DNA of 64,000 bases from Gammaproteobacteria bacterium (GCA_016716465.1 JADJWH010000001.1:685414-749413), one strand, 5' to 3'; positions 2,763 through 15,044 are shown, counted from the first letter of the stretch. Translations and numbers: made by a program. Notes: a model not told the origin generated them from the letters alone.

Positions 2763-4466
2763 GTGACTACGATACTGCGGCGCGCGTACGCGGAGATGTA
2801 CGGGCCCACGGTCGGCGACCGTGTCCGGCTGGGGGATACCGAGCTCTGGCTCGAGGTCGAGCAGGACCGCACGGTCTACGGCGAGGAGGTCAAGTTCGGC
2901 GGCGGCAAGGTCATTCGCGACGGCATGGGCCAGAGCCAGGCCAGCGCGAAACAGGTGGTCGATTGCGTCATCACCAACGCGCTGATCGTGGACCACTGGG
3001 GCATCGTCAAGGCGGATATCGGCCTCAAGGACGGGCGCATCGCGGGCATTGGCAAGGCGGGCAACCCCGATGTCCAGCCCGGGATCGATATCGTCATCGG
3101 TCCCGGCACCGAGGTCATCGCCGGCGAGGGCCTGATCGCGACCGCCGGCGGCATCGATGCCCACATCCACTTCATCTGCCCGCAACAGGTGGAGGACGCG
3201 CTGATGTCCGGCGTCACCACCATGATCGGTGGCGGCACCGGACCGGCGGCCGGCACCAACGCCACCACCTGCACGCCGGGGCCGTGGAATATCGCCCGGA
3301 TGCTGCAGGCCGCGGATGTGCTGCCGATGAACCTCGGTTTTCTCGGCAAGGGCAACGCAAGCCTGCCGCAAGCCCTGGAAGAGCAGGTCGCCGCCGGGGC
3401 GATGGGTCTGAAACTGCATGAGGACTGGGGCACGACGCCCGCCGCGATCGACAACTGCCTGGAGGTGGCGGAAAAGTACGACGTGCAGGTCGCCATCCAC
3501 ACCGATACTTTGAACGAGTCGGGTTTCGTCGAGGATACGCTCGCCGCCTTCAAGGGGCGCACCATTCATACCTATCACACCGAAGGCGCCGGCGGTGGCC
3601 ACGCGCCGGACATCATCAAGGCCTGCGGTGAGGCCAATGTGCTGCCGTCGTCCACCAATCCGACGCGCCCCTATACGGTGAACACGGTCGACGAGCACCT
3701 CGACATGCTGATGGTATGCCATCACCTCGATCCGGGCATTCCGGAGGATGTCGCCTTCGCCGAGTCGCGCATCCGGCGCGAGACCATCGCCGCGGAAGAC
3801 ATCCTGCACGACCTCGGCGCCTTCTCGATGATCAGTTCGGATTCGCAGGCCATGGGCCGCGTCGGCGAGGTGATCACGCGCACCTGGCAGACGGCGCACA
3901 AGATGAAGGTCCAGCGCGGCGCGCTCGCGGGCGATCCCGCGCGCCACGATAATGGACGCATCAAACGCTACGTCGCCAAATACACCATCAATCCGGCGAT
4001 CGCCCACGGCGTCGCCGCCGATGTCGGCTCGATCGAGACCGGAAAGCTCGCCGACATCGTGCTGTGGCGCCCGGCCTTCTTCGGCGCCAAACCGTCGCTG
4101 ATCCTCAAGGGCGGCCTGATCGCCGCCGCGCCTATGGGCGACCCCAATGCCTCAATCCCGACGCCGCAACCGGTGCACTATCGACCCATGTTCGCCGCCC
4201 TCGGCGGGGCCTGCGCCGCGACCAGCGTGACTTTCGTGTCGCAGGCCGCGCAGCAGTCGGCGGTCGGCAGTCGCCTGGGCCTCAGGAAGCGCACGGTGCC
4301 GGTGTCCGGGACCCGCAATATCGGCAAGGCCGATATGATCCACAACGATTACCGGCCGCGGATGGAAGTCGATGCGCAGACCTACCAGGTGCGTGCCGAC
4401 GGTGAGTTGCTGGTATGCGATCCGATGAGCGTGCTGCCACTGGCGCAGCGGTATTTTCTGTTTTGA
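2763..4466 (+). CDS. ureC: Urease alpha subunit (GTG start)
   Basis: [29 protein letters not shown]...[13 protein letters not shown]...MVCHHLD. The long upstream frame from 2544 overlaps ureB; GTG 2763 directly follows the ureB stop. Confidence 0.95.
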
Positions 4467-4585: not shown

Positions 4586-5800
4586 ATGTTGAAACTGACC
4601 GCAATCGTTCAATCCACTGAGGCCCCTGCCGCCATGCTGACGCTGAGCTTCGACCAGCGCCAGCGCAGCCGTCTGCGCGTGACGCTGGACGACGGGCGCG
4701 AGGCCGCGTTGCTGCTCGAGCGCGGCGCCGTACTGCGCGGGGGGTGCTGTCTGCGTTCGGACGACGGGGTCATCGTCCGGGTCATTGCCGCACCGGAGCC
4801 CGTGTCCACGGTCCCGTGTCCGGACCCGTACCTGCTGGCGCGTGCCTGCTACCACCTCGGCAACCGCCACATCCCGCTGCAGATCGGTACCGGCTGGGTG
4901 CGGTATCAGCAGGACCACGTGCTGGACGACCTTGTGCACGGCCTCGGCCTGCGGCCGGTGGCGGAGTCCGCGCCCTTCGAGCCGGAGGCCGGGGCCTATG
5001 GCCATCATGCCCCTGAGACGGGTGGCGGCACGGAACCCTCGCTTGCCCCCGAAGGGCGCGTCAGACCGGAGGAACACGCGGCGCTGCACGAATCCGCCCA
5101 CGCATTCGGTCCGGCGTTGCTGGCGCTGCTGCGCCTGACGAGTTCGTCCCTGCCGGTGGGTTCCTTTGCCTATTCACAGGGCATGGAATACGCCGTGGAA
5201 CACGGCTGGATCAGCGACGAGGCGAGTGCGCGCGCCTGGATCGCGGGCCTGTTGCGGCACAGCCAGGCCCTCCAGGACATGCCGCTGTTGCTGCGCCTGT
5301 GCCGGGCCTGGGAGTCGGATGATGCCGCAGAGGTACAGAGGTGGAATGCGCGCCTGCTGGCCGCGCGCGAATCGCGCGAACTTCGCGCCGAGGAACTCAA
5401 TGTCGGCACGGCCCTGGCGCGCCTGCTCGCCGATCTCGGCGTGGCCAGGGCGGGCATGACGCCGTCGGAACAAGTCCCGAAGACGACAGACGGGATGCCG
5501 CCCTTGGGATATCTCGCGATGTTCGCCCTGGCCTGTGTCGAATGGAAAATTCCGCCGCGGGATGCGGTCTGCGGATACCTGTGGTCCTGGTGCCAGAACC
5601 AGGTTACCGCCGCGATCAAGCTGGTGCCGCTGGGCCAGACCGCGGGTCAGCGCATCCTGCAGACCCTGATCGAGTCGATCCCGGCCGTGGCCGATCAGGC
5701 CTTCGCGCTGGAAGACGAGGATATCGGTTTCACCGCCCCCGGTCTGGCGCTCGCAAGCGCCCGGCACGAGGGGCAGTACACACGGCTGTTTCTGTCTTAG
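4586..5800 (+). CDS. ureEF: UreE-UreF read as one continuous 404-aa ORF: a UreE domain with a His-rich linker, then a UreF domain
   Basis: N-terminus: MLKLTAIVQST...RSRLRVTLDDGREAALLLERG...HIPLQIG (UreE). C-terminus: LLALLRLTSSSLPVGSFAYSQGMEYAVEHGWI...VPLGQTAGQRIL (UreF). No stop codon lies between them in this frame. An internal TTG at 5117 could alternatively start ureF. Confidence 0.75.
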   Translation: MLKLTAIVQSTEAPAAMLTLSFDQRQRSRLRVTLDDGREAALLLERGAVLRGGCCLRSDDGVIVRVIAAPEPVSTVPCPDPYLLARACYHLGNRHIPLQIGTGWVRYQQDHVLDDLVHGLGLRPVAESAPFEPEAGAYGHHAPETGGGTEPSLAPEGRVRPEEHAALHESAHAFGPALLALLRLTSSSLPVGSFAYSQGMEYAVEHGWISDEASARAWIAGLLRHSQALQDMPLLLRLCRAWESDDAAEVQRWNARLLAARESRELRAEELNVGTALARLLADLGVARAGMTPSEQVPKTTDGMPPLGYLAMFALACVEWKIPPRDAVCGYLWSWCQNQVTAAIKLVPLGQTAGQRILQTLIESIPAVADQAFALEDEDIGFTAPGLALASARHEGQYTRLFLS

Positions 5801-6683: not shown

Positions 6684-8996
6684 ATGCGGATGCCCGCGGC
6701 ACCCGTACCGACGCAATATCCCGTCCTCCGCCAACTCAAACGCCCCGCGCTGATCCTGGCGGGGTTGCTGATCATATATGCGCTCGCGGGATTTATCCTC
6801 CTGCCCGCAATCGCGCGCTCGCAGGCCGTGGATATCCTCAAGGAGCGTTACCGTCTCGATCTGGAGATCGGCAAGCTTCGCTTCAACCCGTTCACCTTTT
6901 CCGCGCGTCTCGAAGGCGTGAGCCTGAGCGATCCGGGCGGCGAGCGGCTGCTGGCGTTCGCGGCCTTTGGCGCGGATTTCGAGCTGCGCTCGCTGATCGA
7001 TCGGGCCCTGGTCTTCAAGTCGGTCACCTTGAGCCGGCCCTATGTGCACATTCATCTGCGTGAGGACGGGACGGTGAACCTGGCGCGGGCCTTCGCGTCA
7101 CCGCCGGGCGAGACTGCCGATGACGGACCCGCTTCGGCGCCCCCGGCACTGATCATCGGGGACATCGCGCTGAACGGTGGAGACCTGCACTTCACGGACA
7201 ATTCTCAGGGCCGTGATTTCGATCAGCACTTCACGCCGCTCGACCTGCACGTACAGCGCTTCTCGACGCGGCCGGAGGATCGCTCCGATCTCGTCGGCCT
7301 GAACATCAGTATCGGTGAGAGCGGGCGGCTAACGGTCTCGGGCGATCTGTCGGCCATCCCGACCCGTTTCGATATTCAACTCGCTGCACGCGGCATCCCG
7401 CTGGCCATCTTCCAGCCCTATCTTGAGGATCGCCTGCCGGCACGTATCAGTGACGGGTCGCTCGACTTCGATCTCTCGCTCGCGCAGGGGGAGCCGGGAC
7501 AGACCTCGCGACTGAAGCTGAGCGGCAAGGCCGCCATTCGCGGGCTCGCGGTCAAGCTCAAGGAGCGCGACGATGTGGCGCTGGCCTGGGAAGAGGTGGC
7601 GGCGAACGGCATGACGCTGGATCTGAGCCCCGATCGTCTCGCCATCGGCGAGATCGCCATCCGCGGGCTCGATACCTCGTTCAAGATCTACGCCGACGGC
7701 CGCACGAACGTCAGCGAGATGGCGCGCCAGGCGCGCGGGGAGTCGCCGGAATCCGCGGCGATGGCGCCGGAGGAACCGGCAGCGGCGGGTACGGATTCGA
7801 CGACGTCCGGCTTTCCATACGCAATCGACCGCGTCGTCGTCGCCGGTTCGCACCTGATGTTCAGCGACACACAGATCCAGCCGAACGTGCGGATACGCAT
7901 CGAGGATCTTGCCGGCGAGATACGCGGCATCGCCTCCGCTCCCGAAGCGCAAACGACCATCGCGCTCACCGGCCGCGTCGGCGAATATGGGAAGGCGAAG
8001 ATCGACGGCGCGGCGCGACTCGCGGCGCCCAGGCAGGACCTGAAGGCCAGGGTCACGTTTGATAACGTCGAGCTGACCTCGTTCTCGCCCTACGCGGGCA
8101 AGTTCGCCGGTTACACCATCGACAAGGGCAAGCTGTTCCTCGATCTGGACTACACCCTGGCCGGCAGCCGCATCCGGGGCGAGAATCACGCCGTGTTCGA
8201 TCAGTTCGAACTCGGCGACAGGGTCGACAGCGCGGATGCCCTCAAGCTGCCCATCAAGTTCGCGCTGTCGCTGCTGCGCGACCGCGAAGGCCGCATCGAC
8301 ATCGATCTGCCGGTGGAAGGCGATGTCGACGCGCCCGGTTTCAGGCTGGGTCCGCTGGTCGTCAAGGCGCTGGTCAATCTGGTCACGCGTATCGTCACCG
8401 CGCCTTTCGATTTCATCGCCGGCATGTTCGTTGGCGGGCCGGAGATGGAATACGCCGTATTCGCGCCGGGCGACGGCGCGCTGCCCGGCGCGGAGCGCGA
8501 AAAGATCCTGCCCCTGTCGCGCGCGCTTGCCGAACGGCCGCGCCTCGTGGTCGAGGTCCAGGGCTGGGCGGATCCCGGCGCCGATGCCGTCGCCCTGCGG
8601 CAGGGCAAGTTCGATGCCTTGCTGGCCGCCGCAGGCCCGCCCACGGACGCCGCGCTGGTCACCGCGTACGACGGTTTTTTCGGCGCCGGCGCCGTGGCCG
8701 CGTTGCGCACCGAACTTGCGGCCGGAGCCCGGTCCGATCCGGCGGCGGAGCCTGCCGGAGAGATGCCCGCCGATCCCGAGGCAGCGTTCCGGGCCGAGTT
8801 GAGCAATCGTCTGCTCGCCGCCCAGCCGGTGACCGACGAGGAACTGGCGGCGCTCGCCTATGCCCGCGGCGAACAGGTGATGGGCCTGCTCGTACAGGAC
8901 GGCGGCGTGGAGGCGGAGCGCGTCTTCGTGCGCCGGGGCGAGATTGCCCGCGACGGCGAGGGCACGAGGGCGAAACTGATCCTCGATGCGCGCTAG
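6684..8996 (+). CDS. Large membrane-anchored protein, DUF748/AsmA-like (function unknown)
   Basis: 770-aa ORF. N-terminal TM helix LILAGLLIIYALAGFILLPAI, then a long beta-rich, low-complexity body. The family assignment is from memory only. Confidence 0.55.
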   Translation: MRMPAAPVPTQYPVLRQLKRPALILAGLLIIYALAGFILLPAIARSQAVDILKERYRLDLEIGKLRFNPFTFSARLEGVSLSDPGGERLLAFAAFGADFELRSLIDRALVFKSVTLSRPYVHIHLREDGTVNLARAFASPPGETADDGPASAPPALIIGDIALNGGDLHFTDNSQGRDFDQHFTPLDLHVQRFSTRPEDRSDLVGLNISIGESGRLTVSGDLSAIPTRFDIQLAARGIPLAIFQPYLEDRLPARISDGSLDFDLSLAQGEPGQTSRLKLSGKAAIRGLAVKLKERDDVALAWEEVAANGMTLDLSPDRLAIGEIAIRGLDTSFKIYADGRTNVSEMARQARGESPESAAMAPEEPAAAGTDSTTSGFPYAIDRVVVAGSHLMFSDTQIQPNVRIRIEDLAGEIRGIASAPEAQTTIALTGRVGEYGKAKIDGAARLAAPRQDLKARVTFDNVELTSFSPYAGKFAGYTIDKGKLFLDLDYTLAGSRIRGENHAVFDQFELGDRVDSADALKLPIKFALSLLRDREGRIDIDLPVEGDVDAPGFRLGPLVVKALVNLVTRIVTAPFDFIAGMFVGGPEMEYAVFAPGDGALPGAEREKILPLSRALAERPRLVVEVQGWADPGADAVALRQGKFDALLAAAGPPTDAALVTAYDGFFGAGAVAALRTELAAGARSDPAAEPAGEMPADPEAAFRAELSNRLLAAQPVTDEELAALAYARGEQVMGLLVQDGGVEAERVFVRRGEIARDGEGTRAKLILDAR

Positions 8997-9010
8997 GCGC
9001 ATGACCATTG

Positions 9011-9035
9011 GGGGACAGATTTGAAATCTGTCCCC
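9011..9035. repeat. 25-bp palindromic REP-like element
   Basis: ggggacagatttgaaatctgtcccc. Confidence 0.8.
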
Positions 9036-9050
9036 GTACACTACATCTCC

Positions 9051-10262
9051 CTACACCGCGCGCCGCGCGGCTTGCGAGCCCCAGATGAAAGACGCGTGCC
9101 GCCGCCACGCATCGGCGAGCGCGTGGCGGATATCGTCCGGTCCCAGGGCGGCGAGCCGGGCCAGGCGTTCGTTGAGGGCTGTGACACGGTCCAGGTAGGC
9201 GATCTCGTGCGCGATGCGTTCCATTACGCACTCGGGGTCGTCTTCCTCCAGCGTCCAGCGCGCCTGCAGTTGAGCGAGATGGCGAACCAGCTCCTCGCGC
9301 CCCGGTCCATGCTGGATCAGCGCTTCCATGACGGATTCGACCGCCGTGGCGCAGCGTCCTTCCATGCCGGGTTCGCAGCGCACGCGGATCCACCAGAGAC
9401 CGCAATCGCTATAGAGCTCCAGACGGGACTCGACTGCATATGCGAGCCCGAGCCGTTCGCGCAACTCGTATTGCAGACGTGCGGAGAGCGGCGCCCCGGC
9501 GGCGATCTGTTCCGCGAGCAGCAATGCCGGATAGGCCGGTTCGCCCAAGGTCGGTACCGGCATCAGCCAGAGCAGGTCGGAACCGTCGCCGCCCGCGGGT
9601 CCGTGCAGGGAGCAGGGCGTGAATTCCGCTGGCGGCGCATCGCGCTGATCCCCGGCGGGCAGTTGCTCCAGCGCACGACAGGCCTCCACCAGTTCGTCAT
9701 GACGGACATCGCCCGCCGCCACGACCCAGATCGCGGGACCGCGCAGACGGGACGCGCAATATTCCTGCACTGCCGCGGCATTGGCCCGGGGTCTGTTCCC
9801 GCTCCCCAGGATCGGCCGGGCGAGCGGGTGTCCATCCCAGACGCGCCGGAGCGCGAAGGCCTCCTGCTCGTCCCACAGGGACTGCGAGGCCATCCGGCGC
9901 TCATGCCATACCGCGGGCAGTTCGGCGGCAAGTTCCTTCGCCCCGAGGCGCGGTTCGAGCAGCAGGGCGGCGAACAGGCCTGCCAGCGCGCCCACGCGAT
10001 CACCGGTCACCAGGCCGTGAAAGGCGGTAAGTTCACGCATGGTGCGGGCATTGACATGACCGCCCAGCACCGCGAATTGGTCGGTGTAACGACCGCCGCC
10101 GTGGAACAGCAGATGCTCGAGCAGGTGCGCGTAGCCATCCTGGCCGGGGGTTTCGTGGCGTGAACCGTTGCGCAACCAGAGCCCGAGTGACGCGCTGCGC
10201 CGGCCGGGCAGCGGGCGGCTCAGGACGCGGACACCATTCGCGAGTGTGGTACAGGCCGTCAT
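9051..10262 (-). CDS. M16-family (pitrilysin/PqqF-like) zinc metallopeptidase, last gene of the riboswitch-controlled ABC operon
   Basis: Inverted zinc motif HLLEHLLFHG (HxxEH), then VLGGHVNARTMRELTAF, matching the M16 N-terminal signature. The start overlaps the ATPase stop (ATGA, 10259-10262). Confidence 0.75.
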   Translation of the reverse strand: MTACTTLANGVRVLSRPLPGRRSASLGLWLRNGSRHETPGQDGYAHLLEHLLFHGGGRYTDQFAVLGGHVNARTMRELTAFHGLVTGDRVGALAGLFAALLLEPRLGAKELAAELPAVWHERRMASQSLWDEQEAFALRRVWDGHPLARPILGSGNRPRANAAAVQEYCASRLRGPAIWVVAAGDVRHDELVEACRALEQLPAGDQRDAPPAEFTPCSLHGPAGGDGSDLLWLMPVPTLGEPAYPALLLAEQIAAGAPLSARLQYELRERLGLAYAVESRLELYSDCGLWWIRVRCEPGMEGRCATAVESVMEALIQHGPGREELVRHLAQLQARWTLEEDDPECVMERIAHEIAYLDRVTALNERLARLAALGPDDIRHALADAWRRHASFIWGSQAARRAV

Positions 10263-11070
10263 GCCGGTTCCGCCGTGGGCTTCGGAGAGACGCCGGTGTA
10301 ATAATCCTCCCGCGCCCGCAGCAGGCGCAGCGCGTCGTCCCTCTCGACGTCGCGGCGCGTGAGCGGGATATCAAAGGTGATCGTGGCGCCGAAGCGTTCC
10401 GGCGCCTGCGCATCGCGCCGTACCTTGTCGAATACCAGCAGGCGCGTGCCGAGGGCGAAGGCTTCCTTCAGGTCATGGGTGATCATGAATACCGTCATGT
10501 CGGTCGCGCGCCACAGGCCGAGCAGCAGGCGGTGCATATCGGCCCGGATCCCCGGGTCGAGGGCGCCGAACGGTTCGTCCAGCAGCAGGATCTTCGGACG
10601 CTTGATCAGGGCCTGCGCGATGGCGAGACGTTGCTGCATGCCTCCGGACAGCGCGCTTGGATACTTGGCGGCCGCCCCCTCCAGCCCCACCGACTGCAGG
10701 GTCTCGTCGACACGGGTGAGCGCCTCGCGCCGCGCCGCGCCGAACAGCCGGCCGCTCAGGGGAGAGGCGCCGAGCTCGAGGCCGAGCAGGACGTTGTCGC
10801 GCACCGTCAGGTGCGGAAAGACCGAATAGCGCTGGAACACGATGCCGCGTTCCGGTCCCGGCTCGGCGCGCAGCGGCGCGCCGTCGAGCTCGATTGCGCC
10901 GCGGCTCGGGGATTCCTGGCCGAGCAGCATGCGCAGGAAGGTGGTCTTGCCGCACCCCGAGGCGCCGACGATGGTGCAGAATTCGTGTTCCTGCACGGTC
11001 AGATTGATGCGCTCGAGGACGACCTGCGCCTCGTACTGCTTCCAGACATTGCGGATGACGAGCCGGCTCA
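10259..11070 (-). CDS. ABC transporter ATP-binding protein (NitT/TauT family)
   Basis: MSRLVIRNVWKQY...GASGCGKTTFLRML...LSGGMQQRLAIAQAL...LLLDEPFGALD. The probable start is the ATG reverse-complemented at 11068-11070; the longer ORF reaching 11275 is a GC-rich extension. Confidence 0.85.
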
Positions 11071-11892
11071 TGCGCGCGGCATCTCCGCGTGATACCAGGG
11101 GAACAGTCGCCGCGACAGCCGGCGCAGGAGCAGGTCGAAGGCATAGGCCAGCAGGGTGATCCAGGCGACGTAGGGCAGGATGAGGTCCATGGCCAGATAG
11201 CGCCGCACCAGAAAGATGCGATAGCCGAGTCCGTCGGTCGCCGCGATCGCCTCGGCCGCGATCAGGAACAGCCACGCCGCGCCCAGCGAGAGCCGGACCG
11301 CGTCGAGCAGGCGCGGCAGGATCTGCGGCAGCACCACGCGCAGGATGACCAGCCAGGTCGAGGCGCCCAGGGTCTGGGCCTTGATCAGCTGTTCCGGCGG
11401 GATCTCACCCGTGCGCAGCGCGAGGTCACGGATCAGGAAGGGCGTGATGCCGATGACGATCAGCACGATCTTCGAAACCTCGCCCAGCCCGAACACGATG
11501 AACAGGATGGGCAGGATCGCGAGCGGCGGAATCAGCGAGAGCACCGCCACCAGCGGAGCGAAGGCCGCGCGCAGGCGCGGGATGACGCCGATCAGCACGC
11601 CCGCCGCCAGCCCCAGCAGGGCGCTGATCAGGATGCCCGAGCCCAGACGCAGCAGACTGCTCGCGGTGTCCTTCCACAGCAGGATATCGCCGCTGCGCGC
11701 GTCCGGCTCGAAGGCGACCTGCTGGATGGCCGCGCCGAAGGCGGCGAAGGAGGGCAGCAGCTTGTCATTCGGATTCGACGCGAGACGCAGGTCCGAGCCG
11801 ACGATGTAGGCCGCCACGATCAGCAGGAAGGGCAGCGCGCCCAGGGCGAGCGCGCCGGACCTTCCGGGATGCTGATTGAGCAGGCGGGGCAT
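11068..11892 (-). CDS. ABC transporter permease (NitT/TauT family)
   Basis: Polytopic membrane protein containing an EAA-like loop (AAEAIAATDGLGYRIF). Confidence 0.85.
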   Translation of the reverse strand: MPRLLNQHPGRSGALALGALPFLLIVAAYIVGSDLRLASNPNDKLLPSFAAFGAAIQQVAFEPDARSGDILLWKDTASSLLRLGSGILISALLGLAAGVLIGVIPRLRAAFAPLVAVLSLIPPLAILPILFIVFGLGEVSKIVLIVIGITPFLIRDLALRTGEIPPEQLIKAQTLGASTWLVILRVVLPQILPRLLDAVRLSLGAAWLFLIAAEAIAATDGLGYRIFLVRRYLAMDLILPYVAWITLLAYAFDLLLRRLSRRLFPWYHAEMPRA

Positions 11893-11895
11893 GGA

Positions 11896-12975
11896 CTAGA
11901 GATTGCCGTCCGCCGCCATCTTCATGTAGGCCGAGGTGAAGCGCAGCTTGACGTTGCCCTTGTCGCCGAGCAACTTGTCACCGGGGAAGCTGATCCCGAC
12001 CGCATCGACGCTGCGCGCACCCTCGCCGAGGATCCCGTGGTCGAAGGAAAATGTGCGCACATGGTCCATGGTCTGGATCAGATCCGCACTGTCGGTGAAC
12101 TTCACCGCGTCGGCGGCGGCATAGAACATCTTGGTGGTCTTGAGCTGGCTGTCATAGCCGGCGAGATCGGTGCCGGAGGCCTGGCCCATGTGGGTCCGCG
12201 CCGCGGCGCCCGCCGCATCCTTGGCGGACATCAACGCCATCGTCTCGTACCAGGCGCCGGTGAGCGCCTTGCCGAGGGCCGGATTGGCGCTGAGCGTCGC
12301 GCTGTTCACCACCATCATATCGATGATCTCGCCGGGGATCTGGCTGGAATCGAAGACGGGTTTGGCGCCCGGCATGGCCGTGACTTCGCTCAGCTGCGGG
12401 TTCCAGGTGACCAGGGCGGTGACATCCGGCGAGGAAAAGGCGGCAACGATATCGGCGTCGGAGGTATTGACTACGGTGATGTCCTTCTCCTTCAGACTGA
12501 CCGTATCGAGCGCGCGCGCGAGCAGATAATGCGAGACCGAGAGCTCGACCAGATTGACCTTCCTGCCCTTGATGTCCTTCAGTGCGGCGGCGTTCTTCAG
12601 GATGATGCCGTCGTTGCCGTTGGAGAAGTCGCCGACGATCAGGGCGGTGGAATCGACGCCGCCGGCGGCCGGGATGGTCAGGGCGTCCATGTTGGTCATC
12701 ACGCAGCCGTCGAAGGCGCCGGCGGTGTACTGATTGATGGATTCAATGTAGTCGTTGATCTGCACCACCTCGATATCGATGCCGTACTTGTCGGCCCATT
12801 TCTTCACGATGCCCTGGCTGGCGGCGTATTCCCACGGCATCCACCCGACGTAGATGCTCCATGCGACGCGGAACTTGGTCTTCTCGGCGGCGAGCGCGCC
12901 GGGGGCGGCGCCGAACATCAGGAGGGCGAAGGCGAGCAGCAATGCGGATACGGCGGAAACTCTGGACGTTTTCAT
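11896..12975 (-). CDS. ABC transporter periplasmic substrate-binding protein (NitT/TauT family); candidate guanidine-binding protein
   Basis: Signal peptide MKTSRVSAVSALLLAFALLMFGAAPGALA. AAGGGGA Shine-Dalgarno sequence before the ATG (reverse complement of 12973-12975). It sits downstream of a guanidine-I riboswitch. Confidence 0.85.
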   Translation of the reverse strand: MKTSRVSAVSALLLAFALLMFGAAPGALAAEKTKFRVAWSIYVGWMPWEYAASQGIVKKWADKYGIDIEVVQINDYIESINQYTAGAFDGCVMTNMDALTIPAAGGVDSTALIVGDFSNGNDGIILKNAAALKDIKGRKVNLVELSVSHYLLARALDTVSLKEKDITVVNTSDADIVAAFSSPDVTALVTWNPQLSEVTAMPGAKPVFDSSQIPGEIIDMMVVNSATLSANPALGKALTGAWYETMALMSAKDAAGAAARTHMGQASGTDLAGYDSQLKTTKMFYAAADAVKFTDSADLIQTMDHVRTFSFDHGILGEGARSVDAVGISFPGDKLLGDKGNVKLRFTSAYMKMAADGNL

Positions 12976-13137
12976 ATTTTCCCCTTGAGCTGTCAGTTCT
13001 GTTGCGTCAGACCGAGTGCCGGGGAGGTATGCGCCGAGACGGACCGGAGAAGCCGGCAGGCACCGTCAGGACATCACACATCCGCGGCCTGTGCCTCCCG
13101 GGCTTTTATCCCGCCGTGTATCCGAGCTCTCCGAACC

Positions 13138-13166
13138 GGGGACAGATTTATTTATCCGATCTGTCC
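13138..13166. repeat. Degenerate REP-like palindrome inside riboswitch 2 (P2-region hairpin)
   Basis: ggggacagatttatttatccgatctgtcc. Confidence 0.5.
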
Positions 13167-13216
13167 GCGTGTCGTGCCGCCCGGACTGCATCCCTTGGAC
13201 CAGCCATCCCTGGGAA

Positions 13217-13241
13217 CGGGGACAGATTTAAAATCTGTCCC
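13217..13241. repeat. 25-bp REP-like palindrome forming the P1a-position hairpin of riboswitch 2
   Basis: ggggacagatttaaaatctgtcccc, directly downstream of CUAGGGUUCCGG on the minus strand. Confidence 0.8.
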
Positions 13242-13600
13242 CGGTACAAGAGACCGGAACCCTAGATGCTCTGAACAGGGTTTAGCAATTAGCATGCCGC
13301 GCCCATGGGCAAGGCCTGTGGCGCGAGCTAACAGATTGACTGTTCTTGCATTCGCCTGTGCGATCTTCACCGTGGCTCGCGCATGACTGAGCCCGCGCGA
13401 CAGTCCGTCGCGAATAATTGCCCCATCATGGTGAGGCGACACTTCGAAATGCGCGGAAATGGTGCCTGATAAGCGAGTCAGGGCCGGGCGCACGGCGCGT
13501 GTTCCGCGGGAATCCGTGCCGGCATTCCATCATCGAACTGTTGGCTATTCCATCACTTAGCCGATGGCACGCATTGTCCCGGTTCATGCCTGGTGCAGGA

Positions 13601-13616
13601 TGGTACGCCGCTTGCA
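13601..13616 (+). promoter_or_regulatory. Sigma-54-type promoter candidate (TGGTAC-N5-TTGCA) driving the gdmH leader
   Basis: GG-N10-GC spacing is exact and the -12 TTGCA is perfect, with one mismatch at -24. The predicted transcription start lies ~40 nt before the aptamer. Confidence 0.35.
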
Positions 13617-13666
13617 ATCTCACAGGGCAAGCGGCCATGGCCGCGATAATCAGCCTATCAGGATGA

Positions 13667-13793
13667 CTAGGGTTCCGGTTCCGCGTGGTACGCGGGGACA
13701 GATGTAAATCCGTCCCCGATGGCGATGCGGGGCGACTGGTCCGAGAGTCATCGGCCTCCGGCGCGGAGGTTACACGGCGGGATAAAAGCCCGG
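13667..13793 (+). promoter_or_regulatory. Guanidine-I (ykkC-type) riboswitch aptamer in the gdmH leader
   Basis: CUAGGGUUCCGG ... GGUCCGAGAG ... ACACGGCGGGAUAAAAGCCCGGGAGAG. All three hallmark ykkC blocks are present in the correct order. Confidence 0.8.
13694..13717. repeat. REP-like palindrome (one arm mismatch) embedded in the P1a-position hairpin of riboswitch 1
   Basis: ggggacagatgtaaatccgtcccc. Confidence 0.6.
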
Positions 13794-13817
13794 GAGAGCA
13801 GGCCTCTCTCGACTTTT
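13794..13817 (+). terminator. Riboswitch expression-platform intrinsic terminator
   Basis: gagagcaggcctctctc followed by gacTTTTGTT. The 5' half overlaps the aptamer 3' end (CCCGGGAGAG), the classic ligand-ON arrangement. Confidence 0.5.
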
Positions 13818-13850
13818 GTTCAACGGTAACCGTTCAGACCAGGAGGACAC

Positions 13851-15044
13851 ATGGCCGATTTTTCCCGATACCGTTCCCGTACGCTGAAACCTTCGCTGCG
13901 CAATCCGGCGCACCGGCACCACCCCTCGTTCGACAAGACCCAGCTGCATGGCTGGAAGGCCGCGCACAAAGAGGCCGAACTGTCACATAGCGGCTGGGAC
14001 GCGGAGGAAAGGCGCTGTCTGGAGCTCGGACTGCCGGGTGCGGACAGCATCCAGGACAAATCGATCCCCACCTTCGCCCGCGGCGAGCTGCCGCACTATG
14101 CGGGCATCAACACCTTCATGAAGGCCCCGTACTGCGAGGACATCAAGGATGTCGGCAAGTACGATGCGGCGATCATCGGCGTGCCGTTCGATGGCGGCAC
14201 CACCTACCGGCCCGGCACGCGCTTCGGGCCACAGGGCATCCGGCGCATCTCGGCGCTGTATACGCCCTATAACTACGAACTCGGCGTCGACCTGCGCGAG
14301 CAGATGACCCTGTGCGATACCGGGGACGTGTTCACGATCCCGGCCAATATCGAGAAGACCTTCGACCAGATCAGTCGCGCGGTCGGTTACGTGTTCGCGA
14401 GCGGGGCGCTGCCGATCATCCTGGGCGGCGACCACTCGATCGGATTCGCCACGGTACGCGGCATCGCGCAGCAGACCGACAAAAAGATCGGCATCATCCA
14501 CTTCGACCGCCACGCCGACATCCAGGAAAAGGATCTCGACGAGCGCATGCACACGACGCCGTGGTTCCATGCCACCAATCTGCCCAACGTGCCGGCGTCC
14601 AATCTGGTGCAGATCGGCATCGGCGGCTGGCAGGTGCCACGCCAGGCGGTGAAGGAGGCGCGCAAGCGCGACACCACGATCATCACGATGAACGACGTGG
14701 AGAAGCTCGGCCTCGACAAGGTGGCGGAGATCGCGCTGGAAACCGCCTGGCACGATGCGGACGCGGTCTATCTGAGCTTCGACATCGACAGCGTGGACGC
14801 CGGCTTCGTGCCGGGCACCGGCTGGCCGGAGCCGGGCGGTTTCCTGCCGCGCGAGATCCTCTATCTATTGGGCATGGTCGCGCGCGAGGGCATCTGCGGC
14901 ATGGAGGTCGTGGAGGTCTCGCCACCCTACGACGTCTCTGACATCACCTCGCTGATGGCGATGCGGGGCATCGTCGACGTGCTCGGCACCCTGGTCGCCC
15001 ACGGCAAGATGGGCGCGCACCGGCACATCATTCGTGGCAGGTGA
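13851..15044 (+). CDS. gdmH: Arginase/agmatinase-family ureohydrolase with a long N-terminal extension; candidate Ni-dependent guanidine hydrolase (GdmH-like)
   Basis: Ureohydrolase motifs GGDHSI, DAHAD-like HFDRHADI, SFDIDSVD. 397 aa. AGGAGG Shine-Dalgarno sequence 5 nt before ATG 13851. Directly downstream of a guanidine-I riboswitch. Confidence 0.75.
   Translation: MADFSRYRSRTLKPSLRNPAHRHHPSFDKTQLHGWKAAHKEAELSHSGWDAEERRCLELGLPGADSIQDKSIPTFARGELPHYAGINTFMKAPYCEDIKDVGKYDAAIIGVPFDGGTTYRPGTRFGPQGIRRISALYTPYNYELGVDLREQMTLCDTGDVFTIPANIEKTFDQISRAVGYVFASGALPIILGGDHSIGFATVRGIAQQTDKKIGIIHFDRHADIQEKDLDERMHTTPWFHATNLPNVPASNLVQIGIGGWQVPRQAVKEARKRDTTIITMNDVEKLGLDKVAEIALETAWHDADAVYLSFDIDSVDAGFVPGTGWPEPGGFLPREILYLLGMVAREGICGMEVVEVSPPYDVSDITSLMAMRGIVDVLGTLVAHGKMGAHRHIIRGR

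Follow-up and report, generated by a model that had tools for sequence, protein, structure and literature searches.

An M16B zinc peptidase gene in a guanidine riboswitch operon recurs beside the guanidine hydrolase gene gdmH

Why should a metallopeptidase be encoded at the end of an operon for a small-molecule importer? We addressed this question for a 64,000-nucleotide stretch of DNA from a Gammaproteobacteria bacterium (GCA_016716465.1, JADJWH010000001.1:685414-749413), hereafter the window. Here, an operon preceded by a guanidine riboswitch encodes the binding protein, permease and ATPase of a NitT/TauT-type ATP-binding cassette (ABC) importer, followed by a 403-residue M16 peptidase. An earlier sequence-only reading had described this gene order, with which open reading frames (ORFs) and Pfam matches agree, and had regarded the importer as the partner of the peptidase. 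We find instead that the conserved partner is gdmH (with urease), the gene of a Ni-dependent guanidine hydrolase, and that the M16 gene is mostly a separate, divergent unit. This suggests that the M16 gene is an accessory of the gdmH system and not of the transporter. The genomic signal that links M16 and gdmH is solid, whereas a function can only be proposed from the sequences.

We retrieved 38 distinct loci via their M16 proteins (33–90% identity). The closest relatives all belong to uncultured members of the Gammaproteobacteria and to a few further Pseudomonadota. In 16 of the 38 loci gdmH was located within a few kilobases of the M16 gene, in at least five arrangements (six are listed in Table 1). 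Genes of the wider set gdmH, gim, urease, urt, amtB-glnK or Gcw porin were found in 24 loci. The adjacency, which might have been peculiar to a single strain, thus recurs in many relatives. Association with gdmH was scattered across the M16 tree as a whole, its deepest branches included. It still held at 33% M16 identity and extended to Burkholderiales, Thiomargarita and Porticoccaceae. Moreover, only the upstream side of the M16 gene, i.e., the gdmH side, was conserved, and no gene family was common downstream.

We also approached the association from gdmH and screened 80 metagenome gdmH loci with a hidden Markov model (HMM) of the M16 clade. An M16 gene was present near gdmH in 12 of them. 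Among the 15 adequately long loci with a GdmH at least 80% identical to that of the window, 10 contained M16, in several arrangements. The twelfth of the M16-containing loci (L139) encodes an M16 protein that is only ~24% identical to the window protein; here, gdmH is followed by a 127-residue ORF and then by M16, with a 4-nucleotide (nt) overlap. This protein has relatives of 40–97% identity, and the second clade so defined keeps H49/E52/H53, E121/E128 and R289/Y296. In all six second-clade loci inspected, gdmH, a small ORF of 127–135 residues and M16 were found on one strand, and the small ORF overlapped the M16 gene in four of them (L139, L172, L173, L174). In L170, the operon of gdmH, small accessory ORF and M16 is followed by CbiM, CbiQ and ABC genes, i.e., a predicted nickel/cobalt transporter of the energy-coupling factor (ECF) type. 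Two very divergent M16 branches that are both tied to gdmH would be hard to explain by inherited synteny alone. Mainly for this reason we prefer a functional link between M16 and GdmH-based guanidine assimilation, and we consider such a link probable.

How, then, did the peptidase gene come under a riboswitch? The guanidine aptamer that had been read ahead of the operon was confirmed by Rfam, above the gathering score, and lies directly 5' of the first cistron with 117 nt between the aptamer end and the gimA start codon. Simple scans from gimA to the M16 start found no promoter-like site and, on the operon strand, no terminator-like site, and a scan for the sigma-70 consensus returned nothing in window positions 8900-13900. 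The gimC gene has an ATGA overlap at each of its ends, i.e., with the permease gene and with the M16 gene. At the latter junction, GGAACCGGCATGACGGCC, the M16 ATG (10262-10260) overlaps the ATPase TGA (10261-10259), and the ATGA noted earlier hence stands at 10262-10259. We infer co-transcription of gimABC and M16 from this layout, which should make M16 guanidine-inducible in the window.

The situation is different in the relatives. Guanidine-I aptamers precede gdmH or gimA and never directly a free-standing M16 gene (Rfam, 18 loci). Free-standing M16 genes have a TACAAT-type -10 box 35–55 nt before the ATG, as found by eye and by k-mer counts only. In L012, where a spacer separates gimC from M16, a GC-rich hairpin lies between gimC and this box, and a scan of the spacer for the sigma-70 consensus found nothing. 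The overlap of gim and M16 genes was limited to close relatives of the window. Because M16 is elsewhere mostly a separate unit without a riboswitch and the overlap is confined to these relatives, riboswitch control of the peptidase would be a derived feature of the sub-lineage of the window, acquired via spacer loss or operon fusion. In such a scenario, a gimABC cassette came to lie between gdmH and the peptidase gene, and with loss of the spacer M16 would have become the fourth cistron. It would be translated by termination-reinitiation at the ATGA junctions, and riboswitch control would thereby pass to the last cistron. As a fourth cistron coupled in this way, M16 would be switched on by guanidine along with the importer.

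We analyzed the peptidase itself for the signatures of its family. Pfam placed Peptidase_M16 at residues 12-153 (E 5.7e-18) and Peptidase_M16_C at 161-332 (E 2.1e-16), and the HLLEHLLFHG and NARTMRELTAF motifs, from which an M16 metallopeptidase had correctly been read, are residues 46-55 and 71-81. An HxxEH zinc site, a distal Glu ligand and an R/Y pair are M16 signatures (PMC12731061). In the window protein, the zinc motif is H46-L-L-E49-H50, at the same position as 46-HFLEH-50 in BHP, i.e., BH2405. E121 corresponds to BH2405 E126 in a profile alignment, and R268/Y275 align with the RxxxxxxY of BH2405. Across the 38 aligned clade members H46, E49, H50, E121, N71, R76 and E77 were invariant and R268/Y275 nearly invariant. 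W29, W232 and D286 are invariants of this clade's own, and W290 and C304 are near-invariant.

The structural comparison gave the same picture. The best Protein Data Bank (PDB) match of the clade profile was BH2405 (3HDI, E 3.8e-88, residues 1-387 aligned), followed by β subunits of the mitochondrial processing peptidase (MPP; E ~1e-69). An AlphaFold2 (AF2) model of the M16 protein had a mean predicted local distance difference test score (pLDDT) of 93.1 and template modeling (TM) scores of 0.90–0.92 to TTHA1264 (3EOQ, 7V4Y) and BH2405. Pfam and the model thus both describe a two-domain M16B chain of ~45–50 kDa. The chain starts straight with the first β-strand, and we hence assign no signal peptide. 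The ORF almost certainly encodes an intact, cytoplasmic M16B zinc endopeptidase of the BH2405/MPP-β type. NCBIfam contained no specific model or equivalog for it.

A missing partner half had been considered, and the peptidase had been called a lone M16. The latter is correct for the 64-kb window, where tblastn found no second M16 gene. The fold prediction, in contrast, gave no sign of a missing half: one chain holds the two M16B domains together with the zinc site and the R/Y pair, as in BH2405, its closest solved relative and a homodimer. A homodimer is therefore the expected active form by analogy. Such a homodimer would form a clamshell and act on peptides without structure or on the termini of proteins.

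BH2405, a YmxG-type homodimeric M16B peptidase from Bacillus halodurans, resembles the window protein in length class, in HxxEH at 46-50, in the distal Glu and same-chain R/Y pair and in fold (TM 0.92). It differs in that sequence identity is only ~24% and that BH2405 has no link to guanidine or nickel enzymes; we know of no physiological substrate of BHP. MPP-β is the next-best relative in sequence and fold (TM ~0.9). The leaders that MPP cleaves off N-termini are basic and free of acidic residues, and they resemble the GdmH leader in M16-linked loci. MPP is a heterodimer in which the non-catalytic α subunit carries a glycine-rich loop in place of the R/Y pair (PMC12731061). We rejected an MPP-type heterodimer for the window, with its single M16 gene in 64 kb and an R/Y pair, lacking in MPP, that is kept in the chain.

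What could the substrate be? GdmH is the only candidate common to all M16-linked loci. Proteobacterial GdmH proteins start with a leader, behind which comes the invariant HHP(S/D)F...GWK module; this module fails to align with the N-termini of the two crystallized GdmH enzymes, and cyanobacterial and Nitrospira GdmH may hence lack leader and module. In M16-linked loci the leader has ~20 residues with medians of five Lys plus Arg and zero Asp plus Glu, and it commonly ends in RR just before HHP. Acidic residues were absent from 15 of 25 distinct M16-linked leaders, compared with 1 of 44 leaders in loci that have the small accessory ORF and lack M16. We had to reject an N-terminal GdmH feature specific to M16, because leader and HHPxF...GWK occur both with and without M16 and only the charge differs. 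An arginine-rich M16 substrate, as the sequence-only reading had proposed, is nevertheless possible in view of the basic leader.

We propose that some part of the GdmH system is the target of M16, which would provide a proteolytic step to make or keep GdmH active. An M16B peptidase that travels with gdmH for this purpose, and that is guanidine-switched in the window, is overall our best explanation, and we put it forward as tentative. In the preferred form of the mechanism, M16 would remove the basic leader of ~20 residues in front of the invariant HHP. In nickel superoxide dismutase (NiSOD) a leader is removed by SodX and this N-terminal processing creates the Ni-hook, and [NiFe]-hydrogenases are processed by the C-terminal endopeptidases HybD and HycI. 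By analogy to NiSOD, cleavage of GdmH could expose a His-rich N-terminus. The likeness to both systems is one of concept only, i.e., a dedicated peptidase is encoded with a Ni enzyme and its cut completes the metal centre; the proteases there belong to families S26 and A31 and not to M16, and GdmH cleavage is only proposed. That M16 processes the GdmH N-terminus at all seems to us rather unlikely. We are slightly more doubtful still of the full proposal that M16B is a GdmH maturation factor, in which leader removal would expose the HHP end for nickel capture or delivery, alongside or replacing the small accessory protein. M16 would then constitute a third activation route, besides GhaA/GhaB, for HHP-type GdmH outside cyanobacteria.

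Several observations weigh against a role of M16 in the GdmH system. The charge statistics of the leaders are confounded by phylogeny, gdmH loci that lack M16 can likewise have the basic leader and the HHP motif, and GdmH leaders of the second-clade loci are not basic. Eight of the 38 M16 loci have only nitrogen-type genes other than gdmH (Table 1). Another 14 have no nitrogen gene in the flank, and most of these form one monophyletic subclade in which M16 lies beside recA, MacAB or metallo-β-lactamase genes. In most relatives, M16 lacks a riboswitch and has a sigma-70-like -10 box of its own, a pattern that resembles constitutive expression. In the literature, GhaA/GhaB suffice for Synechocystis GdmH (PMC12704784), and the N. 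inopinata guanidinase was made in E. coli grown with added nickel. Because these two enzymes do without M16, we do not regard it as a general GdmH requirement.

The strongest rival is that the peptidase is a neighbour by descent. It would be a housekeeping, YmxG/BH2405-like "peptidasome" that by chance lies beside an ancestral urease/gdmH island, with subsequent gimABC insertions, an accidental fusion in the window and no role in the pathway. Its own TACAAT-type box, the 14 loci without a nearby nitrogen gene and the lack of a specific NCBIfam equivalog would all fit, and all arrangements are derivable by gimABC insertion around an ancestral pair of divergent M16 and gdmH-ure units. This scenario conflicts, however, with the ~24%-identical second clade inside operons of gdmH, accessory ORF and M16 (6/6 loci), with the persistence of linkage across the distances and taxa given above and with conservation of the gdmH side only. 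We consider it unlikely, with an appreciable residual chance. Should the link be synteny only, the finding would reduce to an ordinary operon fusion.

Less probable, and unlikely in our view, is a general peptidase of nitrogen limitation or guanidine stress that recycles peptide nitrogen or clears guanidine-destabilized protein fragments and is tied to nitrogen-scavenging genes generally. Some relatives adjoin urease only, amtB-glnK, or a Gcw/TorF porin without gdmH, and M16B enzymes are viewed as peptidasomes that handle peptides of 30–70 residues (PMC12731061). Moreover, guanidine induces the E. coli heat-shock response (PMC12186494). However, none of 37 loci had the sigma-54 -24/-12 element (TGGCAC-N5-TTGCA, at most two mismatches) upstream of M16, compared with a background of 2.4% of 400-bp windows. 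Also, a GimA homologue is reported to bind guanidine with a dissociation constant (KD) of ~0.1 μM (PMC12704784), far below chaotropic concentrations, and the M16 genes of the second clade lie within the gdmH operon itself.

The sequence-only reading had also offered a non-proteolytic reaction on amidino groups. We find this, and the related cleavage of guanidino-modified peptides with release of guanidine, very improbable: in its favour stands only the riboswitch-controlled context in this genome, the full peptidase catalytic set is invariant across both M16 clades, the AF2 model has the standard M16B fold, most relatives have the gene outside riboswitch control and no nearby enzyme produces or consumes a guanidino-peptide. 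Most improbable of all is a PqqF- or AlbE/F-type protease that acts on precursor peptides for cofactors or peptides made on the ribosome and modified after translation (RiPPs), which we rejected since the NCBIfam PqqF model TIGR02110 gave only 41.6 bits compared with a cut-off of 320 and the neighbourhoods examined contained neither radical-SAM nor pqq genes and no small, conserved ORF for a precursor.

GdmH-based guanidine assimilation was described between 2021 and 2025, with GhaA/GhaB as known accessories and GimABC as importer. Riboswitch, GdmH and GimABC are hence already known, and the peptidase is a standard M16B member; what seems to be new is the association of M16 with gdmH. We found no report of it in the papers searched on guanidine riboswitches or guanidine hydrolases. 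The words "peptidase", "insulinase" and "M16" are absent from PMC12704784 and PMC11410670, where "protease" occurs three times each (in PMC11410670 for purification reagents only). Likewise, PMC12186494 lacks "peptidase" and "protease", and PMC8390497 lacks "peptidase" and "proteolytic". If the link is true, M16 adds a new component to the guanidine assimilation pathway. It would also supply a candidate physiological context for a bacterial M16B enzyme, which a 2025 review of M16 peptidases gives for only few prokaryotic members (PMC12731061). In practice, M16 would be a gene to co-express when active proteobacterial guanidinases are to be produced.

A family of small proteins appeared as a further companion of GdmH. 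Its members have 120–175 residues and start at or overlap the gdmH stop codon in 50 of the first 172 loci, and in L173 and L174. They share the core FIDGF..A.DK.AYLRL.GVP…VGTASPGFG..EL.Y.P and often have a His-rich N- or C-terminus. We built an HMM of the family from domain envelopes; no Pfam or NCBIfam match was obtained. The accessory ORF follows gdmH in 46 metagenome loci without M16 and in the loci of the second M16 clade, and never in window-type loci. There, gdmH is followed instead by ureD, a NicO-like permease or a HupE/UreJ protein. We regard the accessory protein as a candidate for a GdmH nickel chaperone other than GhaA/GhaB. Several alternative sets of GdmH helpers appear to exist, i.e., GhaA/GhaB, the accessory protein alone, the accessory protein with M16, and M16 with urease-type nickel genes.

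Membrane proteins with an HALDxDH motif and weak Pfam matches to NicO and DsbD_2 follow gdmH in L017, L027, L091 (11182-11874), L095, L054, L102, L036 and L105. A HupE/UreJ protein (E 9e-46) is found instead in L101 (11200-11769), L097 and L025. Both are probably nickel permeases, as judged from their sequences.

Table 1. Features of the window and gene arrangements in related loci (aa, residues)
Feature or arrangement	Position or loci	Strand	Basis or remark
Guanidine-I riboswitch aptamer, gimA leader	13093..13276	-	Rfam RF00442, 70.6 bits; gathering score 63
gimA-type periplasmic substrate-binding protein, NitT/TauT family, 359 aa	11896..12975	-	Pfam NMT1_2/NMT1
gimB-type ABC permease, 274 aa	11068..11892	-	Pfam BPD_transp_1; start 3 nt past gimA stop
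gimC-type ABC ATPase, 270 aa from ATG at 11071	10259..11071	-	Pfam ABC_tran, E 5.7e-34
M16B zinc endopeptidase gene, 403 aa	9051..10262	-	Pfam, motifs, AF2 model
Perfect 25-nt palindrome GGGGACAGATTTCAAATCTGTCCCC	9011..9035	n/a	read from sequence; 16 nt past M16 stop
Second Guanidine-I aptamer, gdmH leader	13656..13798	+	Rfam, 84.9 bits
Terminator-like hairpin with T-tract, gdmH leader	13791..13811	+	terminator scan
gdmH, Ni-dependent guanidine hydrolase, 397 aa	13851..15044	+	phmmer vs PDB; Pfam Arginase
gdmH divergent from gimABC-M16, 4-nt overlap	window, L001, L003, L028		
gdmH divergent from gimABC-M16, 280-430 bp spacer	L006, L009, L012		
ure-gdmH divergent from M16	L016, L087		
ure-gdmH divergent from M16..gimABC	L017, L027		
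gdmH-gimCBA divergent from M16	L025, L036, L054, L032		
M16 and gdmH convergent	L021		
Urease without gdmH near M16	L004 (L004/5), L029, L088		
amtB without gdmH near M16	L089, L030		L089 with glnK and Gcw porin; L030 amtB-glnK
Gcw porin without gdmH near M16	L019, L031		
Riboswitch-led gim-like ABC system without gdmH near M16	L020		
Small accessory ORF directly 3' of gdmH	L103, L107-L148, L155, L165-L169, L170-L174		e.g. L142:11214-11642, L125:11151-11618, L139:1177-1560

The surroundings of the operon in the window are dominated by nitrogen genes. GdmH matches Synechocystis Sll1077 (7ESR/7OI1) with E 1.6e-167 and the N. inopinata guanidinase (9FEK) with E 1.4e-163 over ~350 residues, and it is hence a close orthologue of these two characterized enzymes. 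Its gene is divergent from the gim-M16 operon and lies ~0.9 kb from the gimA start. Upstream we found ureD, ureC, a fused ureE-ureF, ureG and a DUF748 gene, and on the 3' side of gdmH a Gcw/TorF porin gene and urtABCDE. We read the window as a nitrogen-scavenging island that would convert guanidine to urea and then to ammonia. A search for HypB-like genes in the window detected only ureG as a G3E GTPase.

The gimA product has an N-terminal signal-like segment and matches NCBIfam TIGR03427 (ABC_peri_uca) with 579.8 bits compared with a cut-off of 333.9. Its family and the gdmH context correspond to GimA of PMC12704784, and a GimABC-type ABC system was shown in 2025 to import guanidine (PMC12704784). 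The importer assignment for the NitT/TauT binding protein, permease and ATPase beside gdmH was made by this family and context. The window shares with the GdmH-GhaA/GhaB-GimABC system of Synechocystis the GdmH orthologue, an adjacent NitT/TauT-type importer and guanidine-I riboswitches. In contrast to Synechocystis, it lacks ghaA and ghaB (HypA/HypB-like) and has the M16 gene and an adjacent urease cluster with the ureE-ureF fusion, and its two riboswitches are separate, on divergent units.

The gimA aptamer comprises 184 nt compared with 107 nt in the model. It is oversized because palindromes resembling repetitive extragenic palindromic (REP) elements are inserted in two terminal loops, with insertions of 35 nt and 49 nt in the cmscan alignment. 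The plus-strand aptamer has a 42-nt loop insertion (cmscan). The REP-like palindrome, GGGGACAGATTT(n)AAATCTGTCCCC, recurs past the stop codon of M16 and in terminal loops of the two Guanidine-I aptamers, with copies at 9011-9035, at ~13215-13245 and ~13135-13165 in the minus-strand aptamer and at ~13700-13730 in the plus-strand aptamer. As an extension of aptamer stems the repeat seems to be tolerated. The copy at 9011-9035 sits between the convergent M16 and DUF748 genes and is probably a transcript-end hairpin; it has no T-tract and was not scored as an intrinsic terminator in the scan. In the minimum free energy fold of the gimA leader, a CCUCCCC further upstream is base-paired to the Shine-Dalgarno region; the z-score is only -1.1.

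Some further observations concern individual relatives. In L090 (2676-3968, minus strand), the M16 gene 3' of gimABC occupies two different reading frames, and this represents a pseudogene with a frameshift or an error of the assembly. In L004, L006, L009, L012 and L087, a tRNA gene comes right after M16, ~100–300 bp past the stop; this is not the case in the window. The ureE-ureF fusion of the window is one 404-residue ORF (4586-5800, plus strand) with UreE_N, UreE_C and UreF domains; it is also present in L001 and L003, and the genes are separate in L004, L087 and L088. The 5' ureB small RNA (sRNA) is a Helicobacter antisense RNA. Its Rfam model matched with 95–141 bits inside every ureC examined, i.e., at 2912-3198 (minus strand) in the window and at equivalent sites in L004, L009, L016, L017, L025, L027, L029, L087, L088 and L093. 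These matches probably reflect conserved urease coding sequence rather than an sRNA.

Finally, L149-L164 (e.g., L151:10001-11128) contain gdmH homologues of 75% identity with poly-Gln/Asn N-terminal regions and ~51% GC. They look eukaryotic and come perhaps from marine picoeukaryotes. Behind their gdmH lies an ORF rich in Glu, Arg and Leu, whose repetitive, heptad-like sequence may form a coiled coil, and these loci contained neither gim genes nor the accessory ORF.

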